DNA from: Pseudomonas phage BRkr
Sequence record: LC765218.1
Strand: one strand, 5' to 3'
Length of the DNA stretch: 64,000 nt
Below are positions 1,943 through 60,486 of this stretch, in pieces; positions within the stretch are counted from its first letter, which is position 1, and every line of letters begins with the position of its first letter. The notes beneath the pieces are model-generated. The model did not search any database, was not told the DNA's origin, and worked only from the letters and a program-made list of their open reading frames with translations. Both the position numbers and the translations under genes were made by a program.

Positions 1943-1990
1943 CATAAAGCCCCTACCGGAAGGTAGGGGCTAAATCCCATTTCTTTTCGC
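1943..1990 (+). terminator. rho-independent terminator hairpin (GCCCCTACC-GGAA-GGTAGGGGC), member of the conserved ACATAAAG-flanked hairpin family
   Basis: 9-bp GC stem at 1949-1970 followed by a T-rich tract. Stem nearly identical to the hairpin at 60454-60475. Confidence 0.6.
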
Positions 1991-2099
1991 CAAAGAGTTC
2001 GTCTCGGGCATTGCGCGTTTTGGGCACTAACCCAGCAGTAGGAATAAGAAGTAACGCGTAATCTCCTTACATACTATCAGCCAATAGGTATTATTTCAC

Positions 2100-2654
2100 A
2101 TGGACAAAAAACTGAAAGAATTCCAAACAGTGACTCCGGGTGTAGATCGTTTCGTTTATTACGAGAAAACTGACACCTGGCTCCCCAAAGATACTCGCCC
2201 AATGGACTGTTTCCGCAATAAGAAAGCAATAGAGGCATTCGATAAAGCCAACGAAGAAATTCAAGAACGTTGGTTCTATTGGTGCATCGCATGGGAGAAA
2301 GCTTCTGTTCGCCCTACAATGGAAACCGAACTCTGGAAGAACCCGTTCATCTCTGTTGAAGAACGACTGGAGATTGCAGAAGGCGCCATCGCGTTCCGTA
2401 ACGAGGTCATCAGAAATCTCCAGGGGCGTTTAGTTTCGCCAACGATTACCGAGTTCAAACTTAACGACGAAATGGTGGAAGCTATCTTGGATAGCAGTTA
2501 CACTGTAAAAGATTTCGATCGGAACTCGGAAACGGGCGAAGTAGAGCTTCAGTATCAGATTTCCAATAACTTCCACAATCGCGAGTTGGCACGTGATACT
2601 GTTCACCGTATCATCAATGCCCTCAAACAACTTACCCCGGTGCAACAGCAATGA
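2100..2654 (+). CDS. hypothetical protein
   Basis: 184-aa ORF with ATG start. No recognisable motifs. Confidence 0.5.
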   Translation: MDKKLKEFQTVTPGVDRFVYYEKTDTWLPKDTRPMDCFRNKKAIEAFDKANEEIQERWFYWCIAWEKASVRPTMETELWKNPFISVEERLEIAEGAIAFRNEVIRNLQGRLVSPTITEFKLNDEMVEAILDSSYTVKDFDRNSETGEVELQYQISNNFHNRELARDTVHRIINALKQLTPVQQQ

Positions 2655-2860
2655 TCTATCTTGGTTGGTTCACCATCATCTTCGTGGTGATGGGTCTTGG
2701 TTTATTCGGTGCTTTCTGTCATCGAATAGTTAATTCCACTAATCCTGGATTGGAAGAGAAGCGTACTACAATGAATACCGCTATCTGGACAGGTATTCTT
2801 CTAGTGCTCGCTTATCTCAATGAAATCAGTCGAGTCTTTATTGTAGGAGTAGTTACATGA
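2651..2860 (+). CDS. small membrane protein (2 TM)
   Basis: 69 aa. Hydrophobic segments WFTIIFVVMGLGLFGAF and IWTGILLVLAYL. Start overlaps the upstream stop (ATGA). Confidence 0.45.
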   Translation: MIYLGWFTIIFVVMGLGLFGAFCHRIVNSTNPGLEEKRTTMNTAIWTGILLVLAYLNEISRVFIVGVVT

Positions 2861-3099
2861 CATTACAAGAGCTGCGTGAACTTCTTTATAAAGAAGCTGG
2901 TATGGAATCAATCCATGCTAAAATTAAGCAACGGGCGCTCGCTGGTGATTCAGAGGTAAACTTCGATTACAGCAACGAGAACACGCCAGTTGAAGGGAAG
3001 ATGAATAATCGTCAAGCGGAAATCCTCCGTAAAGACGGTTACATTGTTGAATACAATAGTGCCTGTCTCTGGTACGAAGTAAAAGGATGGGATGAATAA
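2857..3099 (+). CDS. hypothetical protein
   Basis: 80 aa, translationally coupled to its neighbours (ATGA overlap). Confidence 0.45.
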   Translation: MTLQELRELLYKEAGMESIHAKIKQRALAGDSEVNFDYSNENTPVEGKMNNRQAEILRKDGYIVEYNSACLWYEVKGWDE

Positions 3100-3365
3100 T
3101 GGGACTCCGTTACATGGGTTATTCCGTTAAAGCAACTGTGACTGACCGTGAAGGCGAGTCGCATATCTTTGACGGCTTTGCCAAGCCTGGCGAGGGTAAT
3201 TCGGTTTATCCCGGAGCTAATGGAGAAGGTGATAAGCGTCTTGCAGCTCGCCGCGCACTGGAAGCCTTCATGGATAGTCCAGTCTTCGAGGAACTAACAT
3301 CAGATATGTACGATACGTTCGATGTTCGTTTCAATTCTCTTGTGCACACTGGAATGCCGGAGTAA
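3099..3365 (+). CDS. hypothetical protein
   Basis: 88 aa. Start overlaps the upstream stop (TAATG). Confidence 0.45.
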   Translation: MGLRYMGYSVKATVTDREGESHIFDGFAKPGEGNSVYPGANGEGDKRLAARRALEAFMDSPVFEELTSDMYDTFDVRFNSLVHTGMPE

Positions 3366-3370
3366 TAAAA

Positions 3371-3808
3371 ATGTCGATGTATACCAAAGACAACGCTGAA
3401 CTTTACACCCACAAAGAAGATGGTGGTATTTACTACTACCATGGCTTGGCTCATGGTACCGGTGATCAACGTGGAGAACTGTTGCACATCTACAGTGATT
3501 ACTTCACTGACATGATGTACTACCGTAACCACACCTGGTCTACTCGGATGGAACGCGTTTCTGCTCCAGGGCTTCGTCTGAGTCGTTCCTTGCATCCACG
3601 TCTGTGGATCACCACTCTGATCGGTTTGATGATCATTATCATTACTCAGGTTGTTTTCGGCACCGAGTTCAATGCAATCACTCCCCAAGAGATTGTCGGT
3701 ACAGCCGTCGCTGGTGTACTGGCACTGGGTCTTCCGAGTTTCATCCTGCACCAACTGTACAAGTGGAAGTACAAGAAACCTGTTAAACAGAAGTCCGAAG
3801 CGGCATAA
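3371..3808 (+). CDS. hypothetical membrane-anchored protein (C-terminal TM helices)
   Basis: 145 aa. C-terminal hydrophobic region LWITTLIGLMIIIITQVVFG ... VAGVLALGLPSFIL. Confidence 0.5.
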   Translation: MSMYTKDNAELYTHKEDGGIYYYHGLAHGTGDQRGELLHIYSDYFTDMMYYRNHTWSTRMERVSAPGLRLSRSLHPRLWITTLIGLMIIIITQVVFGTEFNAITPQEIVGTAVAGVLALGLPSFILHQLYKWKYKKPVKQKSEAA

Positions 3809-3816
3809 AAGGAAAT

Positions 3817-3842
3817 CCCCATTGGCCGCTAAACCAATGGGG
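3817..3842 (+). terminator. terminator hairpin CCCCATTGG-N8-CCAATGGGG
   Basis: 9-bp perfect stem directly after the stop of 3371..3808, preceded by GGCATAAAAG. Confidence 0.5.
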
Positions 3843-3971
3843 TTCCAAACAGTGCATTCGCGACTACACTGTCAGCAGGTGTCGTCCAAGAGAACTGCGG
3901 ATTAGCTACTTACCCCTCGTGGGCATTTTCGCTAGCAGTATTATAACAACACCGTACGTTCTGAAAAGATT

Positions 3972-4007
3972 AGCCCTCCTGTGCAACCAGGAGGGCTATA
4001 TGTCGTC
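3972..4007 (+). promoter_or_regulatory. hairpin AGCCCTCCTG-N5-CCAGGAGGGCT followed by TATATGTCGTC; candidate terminator/late-promoter unit
   Basis: Perfect 10-11 bp stem, then the conserved TATATGTCGTC found after many hairpins in this window, about 55 nt upstream of the ATG at 4063. Confidence 0.4.
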
Positions 4008-4062
4008 AAGTTTAAGCTTGACTTTTTGCCCAAATGGGCCCACTTGCAGAGGAGACTCCTAA

Positions 4063-4328
4063 TGGAAGTCTTTGAAACAAGTTCCAGACCAGATCCCCAC
4101 CACGGGTACTTGACTGGTCTAGAGGTAACAGCATTCAATGGTAAGCCGATCGTCTATGGGCGAAATGAGCAAATCAAAGTTGCTGTATACGATGGTAAGA
4201 TGTTCCTTGGTTACATTGGCAATGGTCAGCTTGTAAGCAAGCTTTCCGATGCTAAATGGATTAACGGATCATCGAACTATCATATCAAGTCTAACTCCAG
4301 TAATCTTTTGTTTACTAGAGCAGCTTAA
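4063..4328 (+). CDS. hypothetical protein
   Basis: ATG at 4063 with strong RBS GAGGAGactcctaATG. The ORF-track GTG start at 3981 lies inside the upstream hairpin and is rejected. Confidence 0.5.
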
Positions 4329-4336
4329 CCTCAATT

Positions 4337-4381
4337 GCCCTCTTCCTTGTGGAGAGGGCTTTACTTAGTTTATTTTTTTTG
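4337..4381 (+). terminator. rho-independent terminator
   Basis: Stem GCCCTCTTCC/GGAGAGGGC followed by TTTACTTAGTTTATTTTTTTT. Confidence 0.65.
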
Positions 4382-4711
4382 TTGATTTAGAAGTTTTACT
4401 TGGGTGTTTAATGAATCTGTAGAACGAGGAAAAGGTACCTCCGGAGGAGGGGGGTTTTATTTAGTAATAAACAATACCGAAGGTATTTCCTTATTCTAAT
4501 TATAAACTTCTTTAATCTTTATTCCTGCTTTTACCCGAAGGGGATCTAACGGAGGCGATGCCCAAACATCGCCATACCAAATGAATTAAGCTTTAAAAAC
4601 AACACAGTCGCCTTGCCTCTCAGGAGCCTCTACACGACATTTCTAATATTAAGTGTCACCATGTTAGGCTTTATCTCTAATATCTCTATAAACGCGTTGT
4701 AGAGCCTTTTA

Positions 4712-4742
4712 CGGCATAAAGCTCCCCGAAGGGAGCAGTATG
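4712..4742 (-). terminator. terminator hairpin for the minus-strand gene 4743..5144 (GCTCCC-CGAA-GGGAGC, flanked by GGCATAAAG)
   Basis: Stem-loop immediately after the stop codon on the minus strand, followed there by a U-rich tract. Confidence 0.5.
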
Positions 4743-5144
4743 TTAGGTCTTACGTTCTTCGAGATAGTTAGTCAACATCGCCTGGCCTTCCTGGCATGGA
4801 TCTGTATCAAAGAAATATTTAGAGTAGTTAGATACATCTACTGATATAAAATCACCATCTGGGCAAGGTGCAGCTTTCTGGAGAATGTCGATATGCAGAT
4901 GATGACTAAAGAACAGAGATGCTCTATACCTCTCTCCTTTCTCCATGATCTCGTTGGCCGACATGGTGAGGAAGTCTACATCCATTCCTTCTAATGCATT
5001 GATAAACAGTTTTGCTATCTCAAAGCGGACCTTATAAAGATTTTGGGATGCCACATGTACCAGAACAGAAGTACCGTGACGTTGTTGTAGATTGAAACGA
5101 AGGTAACCTTTTAGGTTATCGATAAGTGCGTCAATACAACTCAT
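4743..5144 (-). CDS. hypothetical protein
   Basis: 133-aa ORF on the minus strand. No confident motif. Confidence 0.5.
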   Translation of the reverse strand: MSCIDALIDNLKGYLRFNLQQRHGTSVLVHVASQNLYKVRFEIAKLFINALEGMDVDFLTMSANEIMEKGERYRASLFFSHHLHIDILQKAAPCPDGDFISVDVSNYSKYFFDTDPCQEGQAMLTNYLEERKT

Positions 5145-5169
5145 GATATTTACTCTTGTGAATTTGTGA

Positions 5170-5196
5170 ATAAAGCCTTCCCCGAAGGGAAGGCAT
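5170..5196 (-). terminator. terminator hairpin GCCTTCCC-CGAA-GGGAAGGC
   Basis: On the minus strand it follows the stop of 5205..6743 and precedes a TTTATTCACAAATTC U-rich tract. Confidence 0.55.
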
Positions 5197-5204
5197 TTAT
5201 GTCG

Positions 5205-6743
5205 TTAGATAGACCATGCGTCAGAATCGAGATCGCCGCCAATTACAGACCCAGGAACAACTTTCAGAGAATAATCTTCCTCTTTATCAATGTCCCATGG
5301 AATCGTACCGATATTACTAAATGGTAGAAGAACATATTGGTCTTCTTCTGCCGTTACAGTGTTACGGTGTTTACCACGTTGAATAGCGAGATACGCTTTT
5401 CCTTTATGGCGGATGATGTGGTGGAACAGCTCAAGGTCAGGTTCCTGACCCAGACGACGACAACCATCGTAATAACCTTTGTTCGCTACTACCTTAACGA
5501 AGTCCTCGGTATTTTCACGCATCAGTTGCAGTGCATCAGAACCAAGCTGATGAGGGCTGATGAAAGTGATACCACGAGGAGTAGTGTAGTTACGCATGCG
5601 ACGGAATAGAAGACGAATATCGTCACCTGCTACTTTAGCATCAAGTCCTGTCTTAGGTAGCATGTTCAGATAGTCAACTACCAGGAATTGAATCTCGTAT
5701 CCCTGTCCCTGAAGACCATCTAGATAGTTAGTGAAACCACCAATTGTAAATTCAGTGGGGTCGAACCGAACCATCTTAACTTTAAAGCCATTCTCTTCAA
5801 GGCGTGCGCAAACATAAGCAGCAGCTTCACGTTTATCGATATCTTTGACAATGACTTCTTCACCCGTTTCGTTTTCACGGATGTATTTGTAAATAGTCAG
5901 AAGGTTATCAGAGATTTCGTTTTCAAGGGTTGCAAATAGAAGAAGAGGCTTCTTCGATTTATCACGCATCCATGGCTTATTAAACAATGCGACATGTACA
6001 AACAGTAACATAACCAGATACGATTTAAAGTTATGTTGTAGAGCTGCGGTGGTAATAAACTCACCACGACGGAAAGCACCTAGGCTACCCAATACACGGT
6101 TGAAACCTTTCCAACCTAGTTTGAAAGCACCATCGGCAGACAAAGTAGTTTGTACAGCTTCGAAGAATTCTTCTACACCTTCCGGGTTGTCAAAATCAAG
6201 GCAACCCATTTCAGCGGGATGTCGACTTTCAGCACGAGCCTTTACATAAGGATCGAGCTTAGCTCCCATCTCGTTGATCATACCAGCGATATCATTACCG
6301 CCACCACGGTTAAACAGAAGCTTAGTGGAATACTCTTTCATGATCGCTTTAATAGTTTCATCATTGATGTATTCATTAAGCGAACGACGATAAGAGTTAA
6401 TCCGGTGCATGATAGCCATCCCATCTGGGAAGTTTTCATTAACACCATTTAGTACAGCTTCGTAAAGATAGTTCTCTTCACGGCAGCTCACTTGCACAGA
6501 TTGTAGTACTTCAGCGATACTTGGAAATTCGTGCTTAACTTTCTTATTGAGATCTTGAACAAGTTTACGAAGCTCAAGAAAAGTTTGTCGACCATGATCA
6601 TGATCAACAGTAGTCTCTTTAATTTCAAGTGAACCAACAATTTTATCAATTAGTTCAGTAGACGGAGAGGCCGGAGAATCTGGGCGGTGCTCCAAGCAAA
6701 GCAGGGTAACGCAACTGACAAGAAGCTGTTTTGGGGAGGACAT
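5205..6743 (-). CDS. RecA-fold ATPase, DnaB-like replicative helicase candidate
   Basis: GEFITTAALQHNFKS resembles a DnaB/RecA P-loop but with F in place of the canonical G before K. FLVVDYLNML matches the DnaB H3 (lvvIDYLqLm) motif. ITFISPHQL resembles the DnaB H4 (vIaLSQLnR) motif. Length is 512 aa. Confidence 0.45.
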   Translation of the reverse strand: MSSPKQLLVSCVTLLCLEHRPDSPASPSTELIDKIVGSLEIKETTVDHDHGRQTFLELRKLVQDLNKKVKHEFPSIAEVLQSVQVSCREENYLYEAVLNGVNENFPDGMAIMHRINSYRRSLNEYINDETIKAIMKEYSTKLLFNRGGGNDIAGMINEMGAKLDPYVKARAESRHPAEMGCLDFDNPEGVEEFFEAVQTTLSADGAFKLGWKGFNRVLGSLGAFRRGEFITTAALQHNFKSYLVMLLFVHVALFNKPWMRDKSKKPLLLFATLENEISDNLLTIYKYIRENETGEEVIVKDIDKREAAAYVCARLEENGFKVKMVRFDPTEFTIGGFTNYLDGLQGQGYEIQFLVVDYLNMLPKTGLDAKVAGDDIRLLFRRMRNYTTPRGITFISPHQLGSDALQLMRENTEDFVKVVANKGYYDGCRRLGQEPDLELFHHIIRHKGKAYLAIQRGKHRNTVTAEEDQYVLLPFSNIGTIPWDIDKEEDYSLKVVPGSVIGGDLDSDAWSI

Positions 6744-6880: not shown

Positions 6881-7417
6881 ATGATCAAGTTACTTGTAAT
6901 CCCCGAAGCAGTCTATGATCAGTACAAAGCTGATGGTGTGCAGTTTACTAAGCTACTCTGCCCCAACTATATAGCTTCCGTAAGCTCGGTAAATGACCTT
7001 GCGGAGATCGACGCTGCAATTAATGAATTCCCATTCCGGTTCTGTCAGGGAACTCAGATCGAGAAGGCTGACAGTCCGGTTGTTGGGATCGCCCTAAAGG
7101 CAACCTCCGACGACGATAATCAATTCAAGATGCAAGAATTGCACAATCGTGTAGAGGAACGTATTGCCAATATGGCTCTGCGTAAGGCAAATGATTCTGA
7201 TTATATCAGTGTTTATAGCCTTTATCCTGTAGATGAGTATCTTTGGGTTGCGGTGCAGAAGAGTCTGCACACTGGTTCAAGCGATCCTGACCGGCTCACA
7301 ATTAAGGCTAACCACACTTTCTTTGATAGTATGATTAGCGAGCTGACTAGAGCTTGCCCATTTGAGCAAGTAATGGCAACAAATCTCTTCACTTATTATC
7401 TGGAGTCACAAGGCTGA
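6881..7417 (+). CDS. hypothetical protein upstream of the major capsid gene
   Basis: 178-aa ORF. TATGTAG motif about 50 nt upstream. Confidence 0.5.
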   Translation: MIKLLVIPEAVYDQYKADGVQFTKLLCPNYIASVSSVNDLAEIDAAINEFPFRFCQGTQIEKADSPVVGIALKATSDDDNQFKMQELHNRVEERIANMALRKANDSDYISVYSLYPVDEYLWVAVQKSLHTGSSDPDRLTIKANHTFFDSMISELTRACPFEQVMATNLFTYYLESQG

Positions 7418-7488
7418 ATCCGGAAAATACCAGCTTTGATGACAAGATATTTGTAACATCCAAAACCCATCCTGCGTAGGAATAAAAC

Positions 7489-9714
7489 ATGAAAGACCTT
7501 AAATCTCTGTTCAAAGTGAACGGCGACCGCGACCTGACTCGTTTCTCCATGGAATCCTTCCTTGGTAAACTGGACCTGGAAAAAGACTACGGCGACAGCA
7601 TCCTGTCCGCTGGTAGCAAACTGATTAGTAAGATCGGTCTGGAAAACTTCGGCCAACTGAGCGACGAAGATGCTCAAAGTGCTGCTGGTATGTACGCTAG
7701 CCTGCAAAAAGTTGCCCGTCAGTGTGGCTTCGAATCCTTCGAAGGCGCTAACAGCCGTGTAGGCGAAAACCAACTGTCCGCTGCCACCATGGCTGCCCTG
7801 GCAATGTCCAACTCCACTGAGTACGTTAAGGCTCTGAAACAAGTTGGTAAGAAAATTGCTTCCACTGACAAGAACGTCATTTCGGTTGAACACCGTTTCG
7901 ACGGCCCGGCTGGTTCGATCCAAACTTTCGAAGCTGCTGCTGGCGTCGGTCTGGAAAACTACAACGAGAAATCCCAGCGTGACTTCCGCGTTGTGACCGT
8001 TGGTTATAACCTGGCCGCTTCCCGTCAGGATGAGTTCGCTGAGCGTATCTATCCGACCACCGTTATCAACCCGATTGAAGGTGGTGTTGTTCAGGTTCTT
8101 CCGTACATCGCGGTAATGAAAGACGTTTACCACGCTGTTTCCGGTCAGAAGCTCGACAACCAAGAAGTCAACATGGTTGAAGCCTATCGTGATCCGTCCA
8201 TCCTGGACGACGAGTGCACTGCACTGATCCCGGCTATCGATCCTGCTGGCACTAACCTGAAGTACTTCGCTGATCCGGCTCTGCTGCCTCCGGTAACCGT
8301 TATCAACGAACAAAACATGTCCATCGAAACTGCTCCGCTGAAGCCGGGCGTTAAACTGGACCTGATGGGTAACTCGAACGCCAACCTGCTGATCAACAAA
8401 GGCATGCTGGACATTTCGGATACCATCGATCCGTCGGGCCGCCTGAAGGCTCTGTACGTTAAGTTCCAAGGTAAAGTCATCAAGTTCCAAACTGAACGTC
8501 TGCCGCGCGCAGTGTTCCAGCCGGACCTGGTTGGTGATACCCGCGGTGCCAAGATCGACTTCTGGTCGGATGACCTGACTGTTTCGGCCGTAACCCGCAC
8601 TACTGACGCTGCACAAACTGCTGGCATGAAAGAACTGGAACAACGTAAGTGGGTTCTGCGTCTGAGCATGCAATTCAGTGGTCACATCAGCCTGAGCCGT
8701 GGCGATAGCCGTTTCACCATCGGTGAAGTAACTATCGATCGCATCCTGGACGAAGACAAGCGTCGCATCGACCTGGAAACTGGCGATGGTAAAGCTCTGG
8801 CCGACAGCATTGGCGAAATGGAAATCGTTGGTTTCGACCTCGACACCCGCTTCACCAACACTAACCGCCGTCAGCGTGGTCACCTGCTGCAAACTCGTGC
8901 CCTGCAATTCCGTCACCCGATTCCGATGCATGCTCCGGTTACCCTGCCGCTGAGCACCATGGACGAAGAAGGTCCGGGCGAAGTTGTTAAGGCTCTGACT
9001 GTCAACACCAACATCCGTAACAGCAACAACGCTGTTAAGCGCCTGCTGAACTACCTGGCTCAGCTGAAAGAAGTAACCGCTAACGGTTTCGACCGTCCGC
9101 AGTTCGGTGCTGTTGAAGGTGCTCTGTCCGCAGTAATGCGTCCGACCTACCGCTACAAGAAGCTGCACCTGCCTGACATGATCGACACCCTGAAGTCGCA
9201 AGACCGTTGGGAAGACGTCTGCTCGGCAATCCTGAACGCTGTTAAAGGTGTACTGTTCCCGGCTTACCGTGAATCCAACATCGAAGCAGCTTTCCGCGTG
9301 ATCTCCGGTAACCAAGACGAGCGTCCGATGTTCCTGTTCTGCTCGGACAAAGAGATCGCTAACTACCTGATGACCAAGGGCGACGATCGTACCCTGGGCG
9401 CTTACCTGGAATACGACCTGGTATCGACCAACAACGAACTGTTCGACGGCAAGCTGGTAGTGATTCCGACCCGTAAGACTCCGCAAGAGAACGACATCCT
9501 CAGCTTCGGTCAATTCTACTACGTATCGACCGTAATCGCCGACCTGCCGATCACCCGTGGTGGCCAGCAAGTTACTCGCGAAATCGCTGCGATTCCGTTC
9601 AACCTGCACGTTAACAACATCCCGTTCGCTCTCGAATTCGACGTTACTGGCTTCGAAGAAGTGATGGGTGAGTCTCAGTGGAACAAGCCCCTGGTTGAAG
9701 CCGTAAAAGGTTGA
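7489..9714 (+). CDS. major capsid protein, phiKZ gp120-like (jumbo-phage HK97-fold MCP)
   Basis: 741 aa, the size class of phiKZ-type MCPs. Very strong codon bias (CTG, CGT, GGT, AAC, TTC), typical of the most highly expressed phage gene. RBS AGGAAtaaaacATG. The bias leaves a near-full-length antisense shadow ORF (7396..9609). Confidence 0.6.
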   Translation: MKDLKSLFKVNGDRDLTRFSMESFLGKLDLEKDYGDSILSAGSKLISKIGLENFGQLSDEDAQSAAGMYASLQKVARQCGFESFEGANSRVGENQLSAATMAALAMSNSTEYVKALKQVGKKIASTDKNVISVEHRFDGPAGSIQTFEAAAGVGLENYNEKSQRDFRVVTVGYNLAASRQDEFAERIYPTTVINPIEGGVVQVLPYIAVMKDVYHAVSGQKLDNQEVNMVEAYRDPSILDDECTALIPAIDPAGTNLKYFADPALLPPVTVINEQNMSIETAPLKPGVKLDLMGNSNANLLINKGMLDISDTIDPSGRLKALYVKFQGKVIKFQTERLPRAVFQPDLVGDTRGAKIDFWSDDLTVSAVTRTTDAAQTAGMKELEQRKWVLRLSMQFSGHISLSRGDSRFTIGEVTIDRILDEDKRRIDLETGDGKALADSIGEMEIVGFDLDTRFTNTNRRQRGHLLQTRALQFRHPIPMHAPVTLPLSTMDEEGPGEVVKALTVNTNIRNSNNAVKRLLNYLAQLKEVTANGFDRPQFGAVEGALSAVMRPTYRYKKLHLPDMIDTLKSQDRWEDVCSAILNAVKGVLFPAYRESNIEAAFRVISGNQDERPMFLFCSDKEIANYLMTKGDDRTLGAYLEYDLVSTNNELFDGKLVVIPTRKTPQENDILSFGQFYYVSTVIADLPITRGGQQVTREIAAIPFNLHVNNIPFALEFDVTGFEEVMGESQWNKPLVEAVKG

Positions 9715-9823
9715 ACTGGAAAGGGTACCTTCCGTAAGCTTGAAAATGGTACTACCCGTTATCTTGAAGACGGAGTGGCCCGCCGCCTAGAGCGGTAAAG
9801 CGGAAGTGTTAAGCTGACTGCTG

Positions 9824-9870
9824 GCATAACAGCCTCTACCTTCGGGTAGAGGCTTTATGTCGTCATTAAA
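9824..9870 (+). terminator. terminator hairpin GCCTCTACC-TTCG-GGTAGAGGC followed by TTTATGTCGTCATTAAAAAATATTT
   Basis: 9-bp stem with UUCG-type loop, then a T/A-rich tract, downstream of the capsid gene. Confidence 0.65.
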
Positions 9871-9930
9871 AAATATTTCAAATCTATATTACGGTATTGA
9901 AGAATCATTCCCTAATTAGAGGATCAGACA

Positions 9931-10410
9931 ATGTTCTGGAATACACACGGGCATCATGTTGAGCAAGAGCTCACTGATTCCCAAATGAATCCTGGCGACA
10001 TTGTCGTCATGAAAGAAAATACTACGGTTAGTAATAATACGTCTAACCAAACCAATTCTCAAACCACCACTACTATTCATCCTACCCAGGATGAGAATAT
10101 GTTCCATTTTGCTAATCGCTTCGAGAAGCAAATAAGACATGTTAATATATCCAATGGCCGTTGTTATGAATCGGGAGGTACCCCTGAAGAAAAACAACGT
10201 TCGCGCAACACGCGGAAGGGTAAAGGTAAAACGCGTGTTGCGCATGGGAAACGTGGAGACAGAAATCATAGAGATTCGAAAGCATCCCAAACGAGTCGAT
10301 ATGAACCTAGTCAAGAACGGAGTAGGCCCAAAGGACGTAAAGTAGAAATGGTATTGGATAGGATTGTTTTAAATGGTAAAGATCAACCGTTCCCGTGCGG
10401 GTCATATTGA
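9931..10410 (+). CDS. hypothetical highly basic low-complexity protein
   Basis: RBS GAGGAtcagacaATG. 159 aa. C-terminal half is extremely K/R/S-rich (KQRSRNTRKGKGKTRVAHGKRGDRNHRDSK...). The opposite strand also carries a 132-aa ORF, so the coding status is uncertain. Confidence 0.35.
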   Translation: MFWNTHGHHVEQELTDSQMNPGDIVVMKENTTVSNNTSNQTNSQTTTTIHPTQDENMFHFANRFEKQIRHVNISNGRCYESGGTPEEKQRSRNTRKGKGKTRVAHGKRGDRNHRDSKASQTSRYEPSQERSRPKGRKVEMVLDRIVLNGKDQPFPCGSY

Positions 10411-11410
10411 GGACGATCCCGTACTGGAGTGTCCTCTTGACACATCGTACATGGACAGATGGCAGACATCTGTTTTCCAAAACATTTTCTTCGGTCAAGG
10501 TCTCGTCGATAAACGTGTACGTTACTTAAACCAATCGACGCATGAAATAAGTATTATCGATGGAACAGGTATTGTCCTGGATCTACCGGGTACTAACCGT
10601 ATTGAAAATAGACTTGTTATTTGTATCAACTTTACATGGGGTGGCGATGTAGAACTTAATATCGGGGCGATGATTAAACATTGGCCTAATCTCACTCAAG
10701 AATATCTGGAACAACTAGTAGGTTCTGTTAAGAACAAAGGAACCAACACGCCATGTGAACTGGATTTCTATTTCATTGTTGACCTTGACCACATCGATAC
10801 CGATCCTTATGGGCTTTGGATCGAAGCGCTCAACGTTCAAGTAGTTTCCACAGATCGAGCGAAGAAGACTACATTCTTCCCGCGCGATTGTTTCTTCTCG
10901 AAGAACGATGAACTCTACCGTCAGGAAGATATCATCTGGACTACTACTACAACTGTTGCTTATTTCGTAGACGATGAGCGTATAACCGAAAGTGTATTTA
11001 TGCCATTCGGCAGCGATCTACTTGAGGTAAAGCCTGTCTTCATGCCAGATATGCCTGTTGGTATTCATATTAACCTAAGGGGTAATGTGACATTTGCAGC
11101 ACGACGGGATAATGCGAAAGCGATTGTTATCAAACCTGGAGACTTTAAGAAGTATGGCATCTATTCCAGTTTACGTGAATGGAGAGAAGCTGTAAAGGAA
11201 AGTACAAAAGGAATGTCAAAGGAAGATGCTCAGAGACGTATGGATTGTTTTGATATGTTCCATCGACATCTATACGACGAAGAACTCGAACCTTTGGCTG
11301 TGAGAGATATCATCCTGTTTAGGGATATATCAGTTGGAACTGTCATGGACTTCTTAGCTGAAGTAGCCAAGGCAGATGCATTGCTCGAAAAGATATTCCG
11401 AAAGCGATAG
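10373..11410 (+). CDS. hypothetical protein
   Basis: 345-aa ORF. The start is uncertain because the RBS is weak. Confidence 0.45.
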   Translation: MVKINRSRAGHIEDDPVLECPLDTSYMDRWQTSVFQNIFFGQGLVDKRVRYLNQSTHEISIIDGTGIVLDLPGTNRIENRLVICINFTWGGDVELNIGAMIKHWPNLTQEYLEQLVGSVKNKGTNTPCELDFYFIVDLDHIDTDPYGLWIEALNVQVVSTDRAKKTTFFPRDCFFSKNDELYRQEDIIWTTTTTVAYFVDDERITESVFMPFGSDLLEVKPVFMPDMPVGIHINLRGNVTFAARRDNAKAIVIKPGDFKKYGIYSSLREWREAVKESTKGMSKEDAQRRMDCFDMFHRHLYDEELEPLAVRDIILFRDISVGTVMDFLAEVAKADALLEKIFRKR

Positions 11411-11415
11411 GAGGG

Positions 11416-13044: not shown

Positions 13045-13067
13045 ACTTCTCAAATAGGAAAAGTCAG

Positions 13068-15131: not shown

Positions 15132-15132
15132 A

Positions 15133-15165
15133 CATAAGTGTCCCTCTTCGGAGGGACCTTTTCAT
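15133..15165 (+). terminator. terminator hairpin GTCCCTC-TTCG-GAGGGAC flanked by ACATAAG / CTTTTCAT
   Basis: 7-bp stem with a tetraloop, followed by a T-rich tract. Confidence 0.55.
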
Positions 15166-15176
15166 AGGAAAATGAG

Positions 15177-47198: not shown

Positions 47199-47200
47199 TA

Positions 47201-47593
47201 TTAATCACAACAACTGCTATCGCTACTTGAACCACTATCGGTAGTATCGCTAGAAAGGGCCACAGCAGCTCCTACAGCGAAGATTGTGTTGGACAGGTCC
47301 ATATCCTCGGCTCCTCTACCAGAAGCGTAACCACGGCCTTCTGGGATCCTTAAAGGTTGAACCTGTTTTGATTCGTTTGCTCTATAGCGCTCGTACCATT
47401 CTTTTGCTGGGTCAGATAAAGTGGATCTATATTTTTCACTGCCCATTTCAACGGCTTCGCGTGCCAAAGAGATCTGTTCGCATTTACCCAAATCCCCGCG
47501 CTCGGCAGGGATAGGTTCAACGATCACAACTCCTTCTTTAGGCAGCTTTCGCTTTGGCCAGATCCAACGGAATAATCTTAGCACGTTCATCAT
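47201..47593 (-). CDS. hypothetical protein with Ser/Asp/Cys-rich C-terminus
   Basis: 130 aa. C-terminal SSDTTDSGSSSDSSCCD. Overlaps the 3' end of the upstream UvsX-like gene by 56 nt. Confidence 0.4.
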   Translation of the reverse strand: MMNVLRLFRWIWPKRKLPKEGVVIVEPIPAERGDLGKCEQISLAREAVEMGSEKYRSTLSDPAKEWYERYRANESKQVQPLRIPEGRGYASGRGAEDMDLSNTIFAVGAAVALSSDTTDSGSSSDSSCCD

Positions 47594-49009: not shown

Positions 49010-49075
49010 TTATTGATATTGAGAGTAATTTTATGTTTAGAGAATTCGCAACTCTTGTGCCATAGGAAAACAACC

Positions 49076-50044: not shown

Positions 50045-50047
50045 GAC

Positions 50048-50086
50048 AACATATTGCCCCACCTAATGGTGGGGCTTTATGCCGTT
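50048..50086. terminator. bidirectional terminator ACATATTG-CCCCACC-TAAT-GGTGGGG-CTTTATGCCG
   Basis: 8-bp GC stem between convergent genes. Confidence 0.6.
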
Positions 50087-50495
50087 AAGCTGTCGCCTGA
50101 CGTTCCTTCATGCAATGGTGTACTAATTGCTTAAGTTCTTTAACGAAAGTTTCCTTGTCTGTATATAGAAGCCAGCAGGGAGTCTTTCGAGCGATCCTTT
50201 CGAAGTACTTGTCAGATTCAAGATCAACCTTCTCGATAGGGAGGATACCTTTCCAAACGTAAGGTCCAAATAACGTTGGTAAGCGTAAGGCGCTTTCATC
50301 CCTCACGAGACGCATCACTGAATTAAGCGAAGATATCCGCTCGCATTCGTGATCGCGACACTGCACCAGTGCGGCATGCAATGACGCCATTACGCACATC
50401 CGTTTGAAGCCGTTATCCAGGTGATTCCAGATGAAAACCCAGAATGTCCTGAATGGATTTTCATCCAGCCTCAAGAATCTGCTAATAAGGCTCAT
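50085..50495 (-). CDS. hypothetical protein
   Basis: 136-aa minus-strand ORF. Confidence 0.5.
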   Translation of the reverse strand: MSLISRFLRLDENPFRTFWVFIWNHLDNGFKRMCVMASLHAALVQCRDHECERISSLNSVMRLVRDESALRLPTLFGPYVWKGILPIEKVDLESDKYFERIARKTPCWLLYTDKETFVKELKQLVHHCMKERQATA

Positions 50496-51993: not shown

Positions 51994-52413
51994 TCAGTCG
52001 AGTTTTCTTTGACAGTGATCCAACCACTTTTGGTGGGCTTGCTCTATCTTGGATCGTTCGGCAACATTGTACGCACGAAGTTCGGCTACATACTCCGAGA
52101 GTTTCCGATCGATTTCTTCTGAAGACTGCGCACTCGCTAATTCTTCTTCGTTCGGTTTCTCGGGGAGTAAAGCAGCACGTGGGAGTACAAACGGTTCACA
52201 GCTTGCTAACGGACGCTTTTGTTCTGTGACAGGTGTTTGTATAACTCGTTCTTTCACTTCCGTTATTGTTTTAATTTGCGGCTGGCTAAATTCCCAGCTG
52301 GAAGTTGTCTCTTGCTGAACCACAGTCTGTGTGGTGTACCTCGGTGCATAAATAACGCAACCAGAAAGAGTCAAACAAAGTACTAGTAAATATTTTTTAG
52401 ACATGTGGTTCAC
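51994..52413 (-). CDS. lipoprotein (signal peptide plus lipobox LSGC)
   Basis: MNHMSKKYLLVLCLTLSGC has a signal peptide with a lipobox. The mature part is T/Q/P-rich with a C-terminal helical region. Confidence 0.5.
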   Translation of the reverse strand: MNHMSKKYLLVLCLTLSGCVIYAPRYTTQTVVQQETTSSWEFSQPQIKTITEVKERVIQTPVTEQKRPLASCEPFVLPRAALLPEKPNEEELASAQSSEEIDRKLSEYVAELRAYNVAERSKIEQAHQKWLDHCQRKLD

Positions 52414-52907: not shown

Positions 52908-54215
52908 ATGTACAATTTGAAAGGCTTTTACAGCTTCCCTGCACTCATTTCGAATGCACCTGAAACTGTAGCGAAGCTCGGCGAACTTTCGTCGAACAGC
53001 GCAACCTATGCAAAGGACAAGACTTTCCACACCGGTACGTCCGCACCAAACGTTGTTTTTATTTCTTTTCATAGCGTAAAGGATGGAAACGTTGTTGATG
53101 TTGCTGGTAACAACAAAGATCAAGTTCTTAAGCTAGGTGAATATATTTATCAACAGTCGATTTCTGGTACGATCGGTTCCGATCCTAACGTACTTCGTCA
53201 ACTGGTGATGGCAGAGTTTAATGGGGTTATCCAAAGTTTCCGTAGTGGTCAAATGATTTCTAACGGTAGCATTTGGATGCCAGAATGGGTTGAATTCGTA
53301 TTAGTTGGTTCTGAAGCTAACCAGATGAATATCTGGCTTGCAGATGAATCCTTTGCAGCTCAGTACGATGAATACATCATCGAGATCGTACATCCGATAA
53401 TTCCGTATGACGATTTCTTTAAAGATCCGCTTATTGTTAAGCAGCTACTGGACGATTATGATCTCGTTGAGAAGATCGAAGAAGTTCAGGCTAAGCGGGC
53501 ACAATATCCATATACACATCAACGGGCATTCATGTTTGAATACCATAATCCCCGTGATGATTCTATGCGTTTCCCCGCCTATTGGATTGCAATCGTCTAT
53601 GGCGAGGCTGGCAACAACCCTGACCTCATCAAAGACAAGATTGTAGAAGAACTACTGGCTGACTCTGCACATCCACGGACAGATTGGGAAGTTATTCTTC
53701 CAGACCTGTTCATGACAACTGAGTTCATCTTTACTCCATTCTGGAACCAGTATTCTATCGAACAAGCCGATTATCGAGCTGGTACCTACAGTCCTACTGT
53801 AGACCATCGTAAACGACTTCCTTTGATTCGTCGAACAGCACGTGGGCCAGGTTATACTCAAACCTACGTAGACAATAAATTCGAGCTGTCTTCGAACACA
53901 TACAAATCCATTGCCTTCTCCGTATTGGGTAACCCTCAAAACAGGAATGGTATTACACAGTTCTCGCAGAAATTTAAAGATTATCAGTTAGTAACTAACG
54001 ATACTGGGGATATCAATAAATCGTCGCCTGAAACAATTGAATGGATGATGTTGTTCTCGAAGCTACTGAAAGCAGCCGAAGGGATGACTCGCTATAGCTC
54101 TGTTCCACAAGGGGTGTCTCGCATGATTCGTGATAATGTGATTTATGCAAGCGCATACTTTAAGAACGTTAACTACATGGTTGTAGCTAAAGCTAGCGTA
54201 GAAGAATTATCCTAA
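52908..54215 (+). CDS. hypothetical structural protein (baseplate/tail region)
   Basis: 435-aa ORF with RBS GAGGAtagcacATG. Confidence 0.5.
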   Translation: MYNLKGFYSFPALISNAPETVAKLGELSSNSATYAKDKTFHTGTSAPNVVFISFHSVKDGNVVDVAGNNKDQVLKLGEYIYQQSISGTIGSDPNVLRQLVMAEFNGVIQSFRSGQMISNGSIWMPEWVEFVLVGSEANQMNIWLADESFAAQYDEYIIEIVHPIIPYDDFFKDPLIVKQLLDDYDLVEKIEEVQAKRAQYPYTHQRAFMFEYHNPRDDSMRFPAYWIAIVYGEAGNNPDLIKDKIVEELLADSAHPRTDWEVILPDLFMTTEFIFTPFWNQYSIEQADYRAGTYSPTVDHRKRLPLIRRTARGPGYTQTYVDNKFELSSNTYKSIAFSVLGNPQNRNGITQFSQKFKDYQLVTNDTGDINKSSPETIEWMMLFSKLLKAAEGMTRYSSVPQGVSRMIRDNVIYASAYFKNVNYMVVAKASVEELS

Positions 54216-54217
54216 AA

Positions 54218-54252
54218 ACATAAGGGAGAGGGGAAACCCTCTCCTTTTATTA
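54218..54252 (+). terminator. hairpin ACATAAG-GGAGAGGG-GAAA-CCCTCTCC-TTTTATTAGG
   Basis: 8-bp stem followed by a T-run, with the conserved ACATAAG flank. Confidence 0.6.
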
Positions 54253-54262
54253 GGGGATACAC

Positions 54263-56731: not shown

Positions 56732-56766
56732 ATGTGGCTCGGTTAACCGAGCCACTCTTTACTTTC
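56732..56766 (+). terminator. terminator hairpin GTGGCTCGG-TTAA-CCGAGCCAC followed by TCTTTACTTTC
   Basis: Perfect 9-bp stem followed by a T-rich tract. Confidence 0.6.
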
Positions 56767-56805
56767 ATTACCAATTACATGACAATTCAATAGTGAGTAT
56801 GATAC

Positions 56806-57435: not shown

Positions 57436-57488
57436 CAACCTTATGTAGTTTAAACTCACGAAATCCCCCGCAATTGTGGAGTATATAA

Positions 57489-59249
57489 ATGGCCCGCGCT
57501 AACCTTTTCGATCTGTGCCGTAGCATCTCTAACGAATCCATTACTGAAGAAGTAGAGAACAAAGCTGCTGGTACTGTCACTGAAGCCTCCGATCAGAACG
57601 TGGATCTGGAAGGCAAGAAAGATCTCGAACCTCAACTGAAGAGTGATGAGGGCGAAAAGCCTGATGCTGATGATGTTGATGCTTCGGTCACTAACACACA
57701 GACTAGTGAACCAGGTCCCACTGAAGGTGGTGGCGATGGTACTGCCGAAACTGTAGATGTGACCAATGTTCATACTTCGGACACCGTTGAGAATCACGTA
57801 ACCGCCGTTGACCAAACTGGTCTTGGGGATGTTGGTTCTGCACATGACGAAGTATCGGCTGACGATGATAACGTCGCTACCACTACTTCTGTAGAAGAAC
57901 ACACTGATGGTCTCGATACCATCGAATCTGGTGAAACTGAATCCGTTGGCGAAGCTGACGACATGGTGCAGGACATCGATGAAGCTGTTGAAGCTCTTAC
58001 TGCCGATGGCCTTACATCCGCTACTGATGCCAAAGGTGCCGTTGTAAACGAGATTGCTTCGGATATGGGCGACATTGAAAACGCCAAAGCTTCCGTTGAG
58101 CGTTATCTTGGTATCCTGCGTGGCATGCGTGAAAACGGCTATGAAGTTACTAACGAGCTGGCTGAGTCGATGCGTGTCGGTCTGGAAATGATTGATCCTG
58201 ATTTCTTCTCTGATACCGTGGTATCCGTTGAAGAACTTGACGACAGCGATAAGCATACTTCTGCTCGTGATGCTACTGAAAGCAAACTCACTGCTAAGAT
58301 GAAGTCTTTGCTGGAAGCAGCCCGTAATGTTCTGATGCGTATCTTCAACGCATTGATGGACTTCTGGCGCTCCTTTACTCAAGATGCTACCAAACTGAAA
58401 GAACGTCTGCGTACTCTTCGTAGTAAAGTAGGTACTCTTGATGGTGGTAAGCAGATTAAGATTGGTGGTCTGCAACGTCTGTCCATTGGTAAAGAATTCG
58501 TTGGCGATAGTCCTGAAGCTATTAAGCGTGTTGAGAATACCGCTGATATCGTTCTCATCAACTGGCCGAGCAAACTTGCTGAAATTCTGAAGAAGTTTGA
58601 TGATAAATCTACTTACTACTTCGGCGTTCAAAGCGGTCTCGCTCCTGAAATGCTCGATGCGATCGATGACATTCTGTCTAACTCCTTCCGTGGATTCAAG
58701 AACGTTAATTCCAACGAGAAAGATAAAGTTCCGAGTGGTATGTTGAATAGCACCTCGGTTCATATGTCCGAAGTTCTTCCGGGTAACCGTGCAATGTTCG
58801 TTGGTGTGAACACCGATTACGCAGCCGATAAGACTTTCAACTTCAACAACGCTATTAATATCAACTTCTCGGTTATTCCGGGTGGCGATAGCTATGGTGG
58901 TGCCGATACCATCAAAACGATGTCTGCTGGTGAAGCAGTTTCTGTTATTCGCGCTACCGAGCAACTGATCAATAAAGTTGAAGCAGCTGTTGAAGGTCGT
59001 AGCAAGCTGAATGAACTCGCCCAACGGGTTAACCAGAAAGGATCTAGCTTCCTGTTTGGTGCACTGATGACCGGTGATGAGAACTCGGCTATTTCCAGTC
59101 TGCTTGCCATTACTCTGGCTCGTCAAACTGCTAATGCTAACCATCTGTTTACAGGTTATTGCCTGAACCTGGTTAAAGCTGAAATCGCTGTTATTGAAGC
59201 CATGCTGAAAGCTGAACATGGTGATGTTATCGAAGGCGAGAAAGCCTAA
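57489..59249 (+). CDS. abundant acidic virion protein (head/inner-body-like), paralog A
   Basis: 586 aa. Very strong codon bias. N-terminal 170 aa extremely acidic (D/E/T/V-rich). C-terminal region homologous to 59260..60444. Full-length antisense shadow ORF (57456..59261). Confidence 0.5.
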   Translation: MARANLFDLCRSISNESITEEVENKAAGTVTEASDQNVDLEGKKDLEPQLKSDEGEKPDADDVDASVTNTQTSEPGPTEGGGDGTAETVDVTNVHTSDTVENHVTAVDQTGLGDVGSAHDEVSADDDNVATTTSVEEHTDGLDTIESGETESVGEADDMVQDIDEAVEALTADGLTSATDAKGAVVNEIASDMGDIENAKASVERYLGILRGMRENGYEVTNELAESMRVGLEMIDPDFFSDTVVSVEELDDSDKHTSARDATESKLTAKMKSLLEAARNVLMRIFNALMDFWRSFTQDATKLKERLRTLRSKVGTLDGGKQIKIGGLQRLSIGKEFVGDSPEAIKRVENTADIVLINWPSKLAEILKKFDDKSTYYFGVQSGLAPEMLDAIDDILSNSFRGFKNVNSNEKDKVPSGMLNSTSVHMSEVLPGNRAMFVGVNTDYAADKTFNFNNAININFSVIPGGDSYGGADTIKTMSAGEAVSVIRATEQLINKVEAAVEGRSKLNELAQRVNQKGSSFLFGALMTGDENSAISSLLAITLARQTANANHLFTGYCLNLVKAEIAVIEAMLKAEHGDVIEGEKA

Positions 59250-59259
59250 GGGTGAAAGC

Positions 59260-60444
59260 ATGTCCTATCTGGCACAATGGAATGAAGTATCTGAAGACCT
59301 GAGTAAGATTCAGCGTCTTGGTTCTTCTCTAGAGCGCTACCGCGATCTGCTAGCTGGACGTGACGTTGTAACAGGGGCTACTGCTGATGTTATCTCGGTA
59401 GCCCTTGAGAGTATTGACCCTGACTTTGATATCAAAGAAGGTTCTAAAATTACTCTGAGAGCAATCAAAGAAGGCATTATCGCGGCGGCGAAAGCCACCC
59501 GCGATATTGTCCGCTACATCTGGGAATTGCTTAACTCTTTCTACGTCAAATTCACCGGTAGCATTCGTCGTGTTCGTCGCACACAAGAAAGCATTAGTCG
59601 ACGCTTAGGTAAACTAGGCTCGGCAACTACTTACCAGAAAATGTCTGTAGCTGGTGTACAACGTCTATCTATTGATGGTAACTTCGTGGGGTTAGACCTT
59701 AACCACTTGAACGACATCAAAGATCTAACCAACTACATTCTCAACCATTATCCTAAATCGGTTGCAAAGATTGCACGGAACAGTTCTCGACAGTTCCTGA
59801 ATATCTTGGATAAATCTAAGGATGCTAGCTCTAATGAAGTAGCTGGTGAGGTTGTAGAAGCATTTGCAAATATCCTCCAACGTGATTTTACCCCTCCGCC
59901 TGGTCATGCCCCTCTCCAACAGAGAGAACTGACTACTGCGGAAAAAGGTGTCCATCGTTCGGTTGTCCTACCTGGCAACGTAGCGTTCATCTATACACCA
60001 CCTGACGTTATCAGTCAGATGTTGAATAATAGTAAAGTCGCTAATGAGGATGTTGTAAGACGTTCGTTTACAATGCAGTTCGCTGAGCTACAGCTAAATG
60101 TAGCTGACCGTTCTGAACGTGAGATTGATGTACCTTCTGTCCGTACTCTTAGTGAGATCACTCAGTTGATCTCCAGCATCCTTTCTCTAGCAGAGAAAGC
60201 TGAAACGGGTCAGCGGGACTTCTCCACGGTCAAAGTAGTTGTAGACGACGCTATTCGACAGATCGCTGAAGCGGGTGAAGAGGCAGGTAAATCCTATAAT
60301 TCTGTTCTCTCTATTATCGGCGAGATTTCGAAGAAGTTAGCTGAACCAATGGGTTTCTATACTCACTGGCTGGCTGTATCGCTTAATGTGTATTTGACTT
60401 TCATTAGTCATTGCATCAAGCATTACGAAGCTGAAGGCGTATAA
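59260..60444 (+). CDS. virion protein, paralog B of 57489..59249
   Basis: RBS AAGGGTGaaagcATG at 59260. Shared motifs with paralog A: LSIDGNFVG vs LSIGKEFVG, VLPGNVAFIY vs VLPGNRAMFV, and a C-terminal ISSILSLAEKAE-type helix. Confidence 0.5.
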   Translation: MSYLAQWNEVSEDLSKIQRLGSSLERYRDLLAGRDVVTGATADVISVALESIDPDFDIKEGSKITLRAIKEGIIAAAKATRDIVRYIWELLNSFYVKFTGSIRRVRRTQESISRRLGKLGSATTYQKMSVAGVQRLSIDGNFVGLDLNHLNDIKDLTNYILNHYPKSVAKIARNSSRQFLNILDKSKDASSNEVAGEVVEAFANILQRDFTPPPGHAPLQQRELTTAEKGVHRSVVLPGNVAFIYTPPDVISQMLNNSKVANEDVVRRSFTMQFAELQLNVADRSEREIDVPSVRTLSEITQLISSILSLAEKAETGQRDFSTVKVVVDDAIRQIAEAGEEAGKSYNSVLSIIGEISKKLAEPMGFYTHWLAVSLNVYLTFISHCIKHYEAEGV

Positions 60445-60486
60445 CGGCATAAAGCCCCTACCGAATGGTAGGGGCTTTATGTTGTC
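60444..60486. terminator. bidirectional terminator GGCATAAAG-CCCCTACC-GAAT-GGTAGGGG-CTTTATGTTGTC
   Basis: 9-bp stem nearly identical to the hairpin at 1949-1970. Sits between convergent genes. Confidence 0.65.

Follow-up and report, generated by a model that had tools for sequence, protein, structure and literature searches.

Intergenic palindromic hairpins in a 64-kb stretch of Pseudomonas phage BRkr as probable two-way transcription terminators of the phiKZ type

The DNA considered here is a stretch of 64,000 nucleotides from Pseudomonas phage BRkr (LC765218.1), called the window below, and our subject is a family of GC-rich hairpins that stand between its genes and share flanking sequence built around the tetranucleotide TATG. 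By megablast the window is 99.4-99.7% identical to the plus strand of phage PA1C (MK599315.1, approximately 107.5-171.5 kb), and PS119XW, phiHQ and HHBS36_1 match it as well as PA1C does. HPP-Temi, of the genus Pawinskivirus, is 82-87% identical to it, and window positions 198-4383 are about 89% identical to phiKZ-like phages. A first-pass annotation, made from the letters alone, had guessed at a phiKZ-like phage; this was right, since PA1C, 99.5% identical to the window, is a phiKZ relative. Annotated genes in the window include those for the major capsid protein, the tail sheath, many virion proteins and a subunit of the non-virion RNA polymerase. In PA1C, related to phiKZ and phiPA3, subunit genes of both the non-virion and the virion multisubunit RNA polymerase are annotated, and the phage also encodes a palindrome nuclease of the SbcCD type. 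Searches of the window returned no Rfam family at the gathering threshold and no tRNA.

A scan of the window for perfect stems of at least 5 bp, with at least 4 GC pairs and a loop of 3-8 nt, gave 50 hairpins, 21 of them outside coding sequence though just 5.8% of the window is non-coding. Compared with the coding hairpins the intergenic ones are longer, and they mostly have tetraloops. Twenty strong intergenic hairpins, with stems of 6-15 bp, are set out below; folded as RNA in 51-nt segments they reach -14.5 to -33.3 kcal/mol, with z-scores from -2.8 to -8.4. They cover all 17 positions given in the first-pass annotation, every one of which is a GC-rich stem-loop, including the two nearly identical stems (1948 and 60448) that it had singled out; the hairpins at 4337, 35971 and 56734 had escaped it. 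In the list, tails are scored by the number of matches to the 9-mer TTATGYYGT (strong, at least 8/9), and all terminators and promoters are predicted ones; 'both strands' marks an element that is not assigned to one strand alone.

1940-1971, minus strand: terminator; hairpin 1948-1971 with a 10 bp stem and GGAA loop, between same-direction (+) genes, 8 nt past the stop codon; perfect tail TTATGCCGT on the minus strand only, plus-strand tail CTAAATCCC.
3802-3842, minus strand: terminator; hairpin 3817-3842, minus tail ATTTCCTTTTATGCC, in which the motif is shifted by about 10 nt; the stop codon of gene 3371-3808 falls within the CATAA here.
3971-4007, both strands: terminator; hairpin 3971-3998, 11 bp stem, plus tail TATATGTCGTC, minus tail AATCTTTTCAG.
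4337-4380, plus strand: conventional-looking terminator serving gene 4062-4328; imperfect hairpin 4337-4359, T-rich tail TTTACTTAGTTTATTTTTTTT, no TATG.
4707-4747, both strands: terminator at a convergent junction; hairpin 4721-4736, minus tail TTTATGCCGT (9/9) downstream of gene 4743-5144(-), plus side AGTATGTTAGG.
5166-5207, both strands: terminator; hairpin 5175-5194 between two minus-strand genes, sense (minus) loop UUCG and tail TTTATTCAC, antisense (plus) tail perfect, TTTATGTCGT.
9821-9864, both strands: terminator after the major capsid gene; hairpin 9831-9854, UUCG loop, plus tail TTTATGTCGTC (9/9), minus tail GTTATGCCAG (7/9).
15129-15168, both strands: terminator; hairpin 15140-15157, UUCG loop, sense tail CTTTTCATAGG without TATG, antisense tail CTTATGTTTAC.
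15588-15622, plus strand: terminator; hairpin 15592-15613, plus tail TATATGTCC, which is TTTATGTCC in HPP-Temi.
17208-17259, both strands: terminator at a convergent junction; hairpin 17221-17242, minus tail TTTATGTTGT (9/9), plus tail GATATGCTTTATTTTTTTT.
23480-23518, both strands: terminator at a convergent junction; hairpin 23489-23507, minus tail TTTATGTCGT (9/9), plus tail AATATGTTGC.
33271-33295, minus strand: terminator; hairpin 33280-33295 between (+) genes, minus tail TTTATGCCGT (9/9), sense tail CAAGCCAAAAA.
35971-36008, plus strand: terminator, then late promoter; hairpin 35971-35994 followed by TTTTATAATGCTATG, predicted start at G36008.
38571-38630, both strands: terminator; hairpin 38581-38600, plus tail TATATGTTGC, minus tail AGTATGCCTT, second TATG at 38627-38630.
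44495-44539, both strands: terminator at a convergent junction; hairpin 44504-44529, plus tail TTTTATGTCGT (9/9), minus tail TTTATGCCGC (8/9).
47165-47200, both strands: terminator; hairpin 47175-47190, with minus-strand genes to either side and the weak variant CTATG in both flanks.
50046-50086, both strands: terminator at a convergent junction; hairpin 50056-50075, plus tail TTTATGCCGT (9/9), minus tail AATATGTTGT (8/9).
54216-54253, both strands: terminator; hairpin 54225-54244, GAAA loop, sense tail TTTTATTAG, antisense tail TTATGTTTT (8/9).
56734-56770, plus strand: TATG-less terminator; hairpin 56734-56755, T-rich tail, neither side with TATG.
60438-60491, both strands: the best palindrome, at a convergent junction; ACGGCATAAAG-CCCCTACC-GAAT-GGTAGGGG-CTTTATGTTGT, with an extended stem of 19 bp and -33.3 kcal/mol.

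Sequence next to these stems is far from random. TATG stands within 12 nt of the stem, the distance at which a flanking copy was counted, on 25 of the 40 hairpin sides, where about 1.7 would be expected from a background of 4.3% (p=1.6e-24), and the 9-mer reaches at least 8/9 on 15 of the 40 sides against a background of 0.7%. Twelve of the 18 matches to TTATGYYG in the window fall into its 5.8% of non-coding DNA, a density about 30-fold that in coding sequence. The motif is thus not equally frequent inside genes, so that the observation of a hairpin family stands, and the non-random degenerate tail bears out the remark that the flanks are conserved beyond what a hairpin needs. The literal palindrome CATAAAG-N10-40-CTTTATG occurs once, at 60448-60481 (0.03 expected), and CTTTATG alone is not over-represented in the window (14 copies, 9.6 expected), which means that degenerate, hairpin-anchored scoring is required. 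In the same way, flanks shared by nearly all copies were confirmed in a degenerate form, but on one side only at 1948, 3971, 15140, 15592, 33280 and 54225, displaced at 3817 and as the weak variant at 47175. Each of the six convergent junctions in the window is occupied by a hairpin flanked by TATG on either side, and none of the six divergent ones has a hairpin. The impression that many copies lie between convergent genes is therefore correct for the junctions, but it describes only 6 of the 17 sites first listed, the other 11 lying between genes of the same direction.

Comparison with HPP-Temi separates the parts of the element. The hairpins occupy orthologous positions in the two phages and their loops vary freely, as in the hairpin at 1948, which is kept with a changed loop. 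Stem changes are compensatory at 15140 (T>C with A>G) and at 56734, and the hairpin at 60448 has an entirely different stem (GCCCTCCC..GGGAGGGC) between flanks that are both kept, which indicates that the flanks are under selection independently of the stem. TATATG at 15592 and 38581 is TTTATG in HPP-Temi; (T)ATATG, at first taken for a separate element, is interchangeable with it and so just a variant of the tail. The pattern CATAAAGCCC-N8-24-GGGCTTTATG was found in 40 stretches of IMG/VR contigs, most of them 188-317 kb long, and the flanks again extend as YYGT, which indicates that the two-sided form is common in phiKZ-like jumbo phages. One loop, at 23496-23500, is exactly reverse-complemented between the window and HPP-Temi (TCAAG and CTTGA) with arms and flanks unchanged, which suggests a template-switch inversion inside the palindrome.

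To gain statistical power, the complete PA1C genome and its annotation were assembled and stems of at least 6 bp were collected. There are 200 perfect hairpins, 103 of them intergenic and 6 at gene edges, in a genome that is 7% non-coding; the 91 within coding sequence are weaker. Of the 206 sides of intergenic hairpins, 73 have a tail of at least 8/9 (null 0.7%), a score that no side of a coding hairpin reaches (0 of 182). No other tetramer is as enriched as TATG in the first 14 nt past intergenic stems: the excess is 14.4-fold where the side is sense or convergent and 10.9-fold where it is antisense, ahead of TTTT (5.2-fold) and also of TTTA. In a logo conditioned on TATG only, the bases after it are pyrimidine at +2 (96%) and +3 (97%), G at +4 (51%) and T at +5 (62%), and those before it are GGGC-T-T, giving the unit GGGC-TT-TATG-YY-G-T; the TAT is near-invariant and the U-run is short. 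Hairpins occur at 18 of 19 convergent junctions, at one of 18 divergent ones, and at 71 of 311 (++) and 13 of 64 (--) junctions, a median of 7-9 nt past the stop codon. The motif scores at least 7/9 on both sides in 18 of the 19 convergent hairpins, while between genes of one direction it is the sense-downstream side that has the 9-mer more often (54 of 89, against 28 of 89 for the antisense side). TATG is present on both sides of 23 same-direction hairpins, on the sense side only of 15, on the antisense side only of 12 and on neither side of 39 (odds ratio 5, p=5e-4), and this co-occurrence above independence fits a palindromic module. Tetraloops account for 77 of the 109 loops, and the sense-strand loop reads UUCG in 36 cases and CGAA in 3 (p=4e-8), from which it follows that the element works as RNA in the direction of the gene; a DNA-symmetric function could not give such an asymmetry.

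Elements of this description are known from two related phages. Mapping of phiKZ transcripts by Oxford Nanopore (ONT)-cappable-seq gave 133 termination sites (Putzeys et al. 2024, microLife, PMC10914365). Its intrinsic terminators are a stem-loop followed by 5'-TTAT-3', with the consensus BCCYCCCCHWWDGGGRRGGBYTTATKYYGT at 61 sites, and six overlapping bidirectional regions lie between convergent genes (PMC10914365). In 201phi2-1 a motif A like that of phiKZ (n=59) is joined in 21 terminators by a motif B that elongates the hairpin, 15 termination sites are bidirectional, and the authors read the long stems as resistance to antitermination (PMC11512511). The hairpins described here add a Pawinskivirus genome to those in which this terminator class is found. 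As read from the sequence, the downstream flank of the first-pass annotation is the published phiKZ terminator tail and the upstream flank is its reverse complement. Shared with phiKZ are the GC-rich stem-loop with YTTATKYYGT, the mostly intergenic placement and bidirectionality at convergent genes; what differs is the genus, here Pawinskivirus (PA1C-like), and the two-sided palindromic form, which is quantified here, whereas the phiKZ paper gives only the six overlapping regions and does not mention TATG (PMC10914365). Motif A of 201phi2-1 is the same motif, and its motif B, known to us by description, lengthens the hairpin as the upstream CATAAAG flank does here and is probably the same thing as that flank.

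The phiKZ start sites with 50 bp of upstream sequence, and the termination sites with sequence from -60 to +40, were taken from a bioRxiv supplement (10.1101/2023.10.13.562163). The comparison below covers the promoters P001-P126 and the terminators T001-T118, and since the termination sequences were extracted from a PDF at lengths of 97-101 nt, 3'-end offsets carry about 2 nt of noise. At 43 hairpin-type sites the phiKZ 3' ends lie mostly 5-9 nt past the stem (mode 8) and 1-3 nt past the G of TATG; at T003 and T004 they lie just 1-5 nt past the stem. Ends on both strands at a single hairpin are seen in the pairs T012/T013, T018/T019, T051/T052, T059/T060, T070/T071 and T092/T093. Two of the mapped loci are closely similar in the window: positions 3804-3872, with the 3817 hairpin, are 97% identical to T003, and positions 3930-4027, with the 3971 hairpin, are 94% identical to T004, both of them mapped minus-strand 3' ends. 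The ends at T003 and T004 are on the strand antisense to the annotated genes and are fed by the minus-strand starts P004 and P005. Hairpins mapped in phiKZ, these two loci with 94-97% identity to the window among them, thus mark transcript ends, and by homology the same ends would be expected in the present phage. P004/P005 and T004/T003 bound a transcript of 220-470 nt (phiKZ 12168-12482, window approximately 3970-4290, minus strand) that is antisense to the ORF024 homologue; as this region is 94-97% identical in the window, it may give rise to an antisense RNA here too, or a gene may have been called in the wrong orientation.

We therefore consider it highly probable that the hairpins are phiKZ-type intrinsic, hairpin-dependent terminators for the multisubunit RNA polymerases that the phage itself encodes. 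Each unit would consist of a GC-rich stem, usually with a UUCG tetraloop on the transcribed strand, and the tail (C)T-TTATG-YY-G-T. The transcript would fold into the hairpin and be released about 6-9 nt past the stem, 1-3 nt past the G of TATG and inside the short U-rich segment TTTAUGYY. Where transcription arrives from both sides a tail would be placed on both strands for two-way function, and a tail on both strands reads on one strand as the palindrome ACRRCATAAAG-stem-loop-stem-CTTTATGYYGT. Pairing between the A-rich upstream flank and the U-rich tail may also add up to 7 bp to the stem, 60448 being an example, and such extension presumably raises the efficiency of termination. Bacteria have bidirectional intrinsic terminators made of an A-tract, a hairpin and a U-tract between convergent genes (for example in E. 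coli by SMRT-Cappable-seq). The phage elements resemble these in using one hairpin for both strands and in an A-rich upstream flank complementary to the U-rich tail, but differ in that the tail is the specific word TTATGYYGT instead of a plain U-run and in that the polymerases are phage-encoded and sigma-less. The suggestion in the first-pass annotation that the hairpins are bidirectional terminators is hence supported, many elements being predicted to act both ways and all six convergent junctions having TATG on both sides.

Several observations weigh against this interpretation. Termination in this phage rests on homology; the tail has a short U-run and an invariant A, which do not make a canonical U-tract; and 39 of the 89 same-direction hairpins have no TATG, which indicates that the tail is not obligatory. 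TATG is present on the antisense side of 35 of these 89 hairpins, 12 of them having it there only, and hairpins with an antisense TATG are not nearer to opposite-strand operons than the others (median 9.6 and 5.8 kb, p=0.10). The palindrome is therefore not fully accounted for by annotated genes that would need termination both ways, and antisense tails as a general backstop against nearby opposite-strand operons were rejected by the same comparison; T003/T004 of phiKZ is a case of antisense use at one locus. Candidate explanations of the antisense TATG are internal antisense starts, such as phiKZ P004 and P005, and extension of the stem. A further point is that 3'-end mapping cannot tell termination from trimming back to a stable hairpin, which would suit the view that the hairpins protect RNA 3' ends or mark cleavage and that the mapped ends are products of processing. 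The very stable stems with UUCG loops and the phiKZ ends at T003 and T004, so close to the stem, are in accordance with such a role. However, conservation reaches 9-11 nt past the stem, into sequence that trimming would remove, most phiKZ ends lie 6-9 nt past the stem as in intrinsic termination, and eight 201phi2-1 terminators are reported to have been tested in a two-reporter terminator trap in host cells without phage (PMC11512511). Processing is accordingly quite unlikely to account for the family, and the ends are probably made by release.

The same palindromes could in principle act as DNA, as sites for dimeric proteins, as cruciforms in replication, packaging or recombination, or as a mobile repeat of the repetitive extragenic palindromic (REP) or miniature inverted-repeat transposable element (MITE) type. 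The overall sequence is palindromic, the phage has its SbcCD-type nuclease, and the inverted loop at 23496-23500 might be expected of such an element; REP, the related bacterial interspersed mosaic elements (BIME) and MITE are likewise short GC-rich intergenic palindromes in many copies. The strand asymmetry of the loops, stems that differ from one another and change by compensation at orthologous positions, and placement that tracks gene orientation all stand against this, and we find a DNA-level role barely credible. A REP- or MITE-like mobile repeat in particular was ruled out by the differing stems with no common sequence, the orthologous positions in HPP-Temi and the orientation-bound placement, together with the compensatory stems and strand-specific loops.

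Because the tail contains TATG, its relation to the promoters of the group needs separate consideration. The late promoter of phiKZ is T(-3)ATG(+1), reportedly with no conservation downstream of the TATG (PMC4666361; PMC12809450), and in centring these promoters on TATG the first-pass annotation was correct. It went on to propose compact terminator-promoter units, in which the TATG right after the hairpin would be a late start for the non-virion polymerase. The tail and the late promoter do share the identical tetranucleotide, the top 4-mer past the hairpins (14.4-fold), some tails stand 20-100 nt upstream of a start codon, and the phiKZ late starts P049 and P075 lie 5-12 nt past a hairpin tail. 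These two, however, use a second TATG downstream of the tail. Not one of the phiKZ starts P001-P126 is at the G of a hairpin-adjacent TTATGYYGT, no plus-strand start is listed among them at the phiKZ equivalent of window position 3998, and what has been mapped at the tail in phiKZ are 3' ends and not 5' ends. The conserved YYGT past the TATG is also unlike the reported late promoters. Furthermore, convergent junctions have the strongest motifs, and the best copies there point at the 3' end of an opposing gene and not at a same-strand gene downstream, so that as promoters they would drive antisense RNA into the facing gene; hairpins are also essentially absent from divergent junctions (1/18 in PA1C, 0/6 in the window). 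The spacing of 50-90 nt to the next ATG, part of the same proposal, fails at 15614, where it is 23 nt. A start at the hairpin-adjacent TATG is thus very improbable. What survives of the unit is its architecture, as separate promoters very often follow 10-40 nt past a terminator. In phiKZ, early promoters (…TATATTAC) are found about 25-35 nt past the tail at P001, P012, P017, P028 and P099, and the gene that follows 9856 in the window is preceded by a similar element:

9886-9893, plus strand: early-type promoter, TATATTAC with AT-rich sequence upstream, 30 nt past the capsid terminator.

The layout is that of phiKZ P012, P017 and P028, and the element is, by its sequence, likely the promoter for genes 9931-15131, including the one for a non-virion RNA polymerase subunit. 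The terminator at 9831 itself agrees in position and layout with phiKZ T057, which also stands after the capsid gene and before an early promoter. The PA1C genome has 22 intergenic sites of this early-promoter type, many of them straight after terminator tails. At 35971-36008 the sequence matches phiKZ T064 (3' end 145649) and late promoter P075 (start 145659), which speaks for a genuine terminator with a late promoter right behind it that would use the second TATG. The layout at 38581 is that of T065 (TCTTATGTTGT), which P078, a late promoter, follows at a distance of 42 nt; the two loci could not be matched by sequence, and by position the late start of the sheath gene is probably the TATG at approximately 38627, not that at 38603. 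At the positional equivalent of 33280, phiKZ T063, a plus-strand 3' end was mapped although a sense tail is lacking.

A more specific idea would add to the terminator interpretation a role for the promoter word itself. In the open promoter bubble a pocket of gp123, the beta-like subunit of the non-virion polymerase, binds the TATG of the single-stranded non-template DNA, and the tail TATG might be read by the same pocket, which would stall the enzyme before release follows. The promoter pocket, as a sensor of pausing or arrest, would then make termination sequence-specific, and the palindrome would stop the polymerase both ways, including pervasive antisense transcription that begins at chance TATG. 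The binding of gp123 to TATG at promoters, the enrichment of TATG above TTTT or TTTA past hairpins, and the near-invariant TAT with its short U-run would all suit this, as would the phiKZ 3' ends 1-3 nt past the G, which correspond to the geometry of an early transcribing complex. Bacterial polymerases pause at the consensus G(-10)Y(-1)G(+1), with a pyrimidine at the 3' end and G next, and the YY followed by G after the tail TATG fits this general rule. TTATG tails tend to go with middle and late units and TTATT with early ones, in trends of the same direction that are weak: in the early-rich block of PA1C (216-285 kb) 8 of 30 tails have TATG compared with 30 of 59 (p=0.04), but the first hairpin after an early promoter in PA1C has it in 8 of 20 cases against 63 of 107 (p=0.14), and in phiKZ a tally by nearest promoter gives 1 of 6 against 19 of 38 (p=0.20). 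Many terminators are without TATG, and the cited literature on the phiKZ group draws no link between terminator tail and promoter word. We therefore regard the stalling step as doubtful, and are equally reserved about the sequence-specific, two-way stop that would come with it.

Some further features of the window were recorded. The gene-free 414 nt at 4329-4742 hold three hairpins (4337, 4438 and 4554), and HPP-Temi has about 1.3 kb of extra DNA there, including a 1017-nt gene; the region may be a small RNA locus or a deletion scar. The stop codon of gene 44515-45276(-) is inside the TTAA loop of the 44504-44529 hairpin, so that one arm and tail of this terminator are coding sequence. Late-promoter-like yTATGTrg, intergenic and with no adjoining hairpin, was found at 6834, 24834, 35351, 36005, 37480, 38627, 49032 and 57442; positions 49012-49035 match the phiKZ late promoter P083, and 35995-36009 match P075. 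Long antisense open reading frames (ORFs) of 455-737 aa lie opposite the capsid, sheath and other long genes (7396-9609(-), 13050-14972(-), 39513-41186(-), 57456-59261(-) and 47421-48788(+)). The one checked, facing the capsid gene, has the same codon register as the capsid gene, and most likely these ORFs reflect avoidance of TTA, CTA and TCA codons and are not real genes. Two ORFs of 136-139 aa, 50085-50495(-) and 51994-52413(-), are unannotated in PA1C and annotated in HPP-Temi, and a 435-aa ORF at 52908-54215(+) is given as two genes in the PA1C record.

The terminator class as such is already known, and much of what is described here is otherwise largely ordinary; the remaining points are the unexplained antisense flanks and the coincidence of the tail with the promoter word. 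The hairpins provide a map of likely ends of transcription units for PA1C-like therapeutic phages, with 20 sites in the window and about 109 in PA1C, and they correct the tempting reading of a post-hairpin TATG as a late promoter. They may also be of use as compact two-way insulator parts for engineering. TATG has been known as necessary, not sufficient, for promoter use, and the same word is the top tetramer after terminator hairpins on both strands. With this shared word it becomes possible to test directly in vitro whether promoter recognition and termination are linked in the non-virion polymerase.

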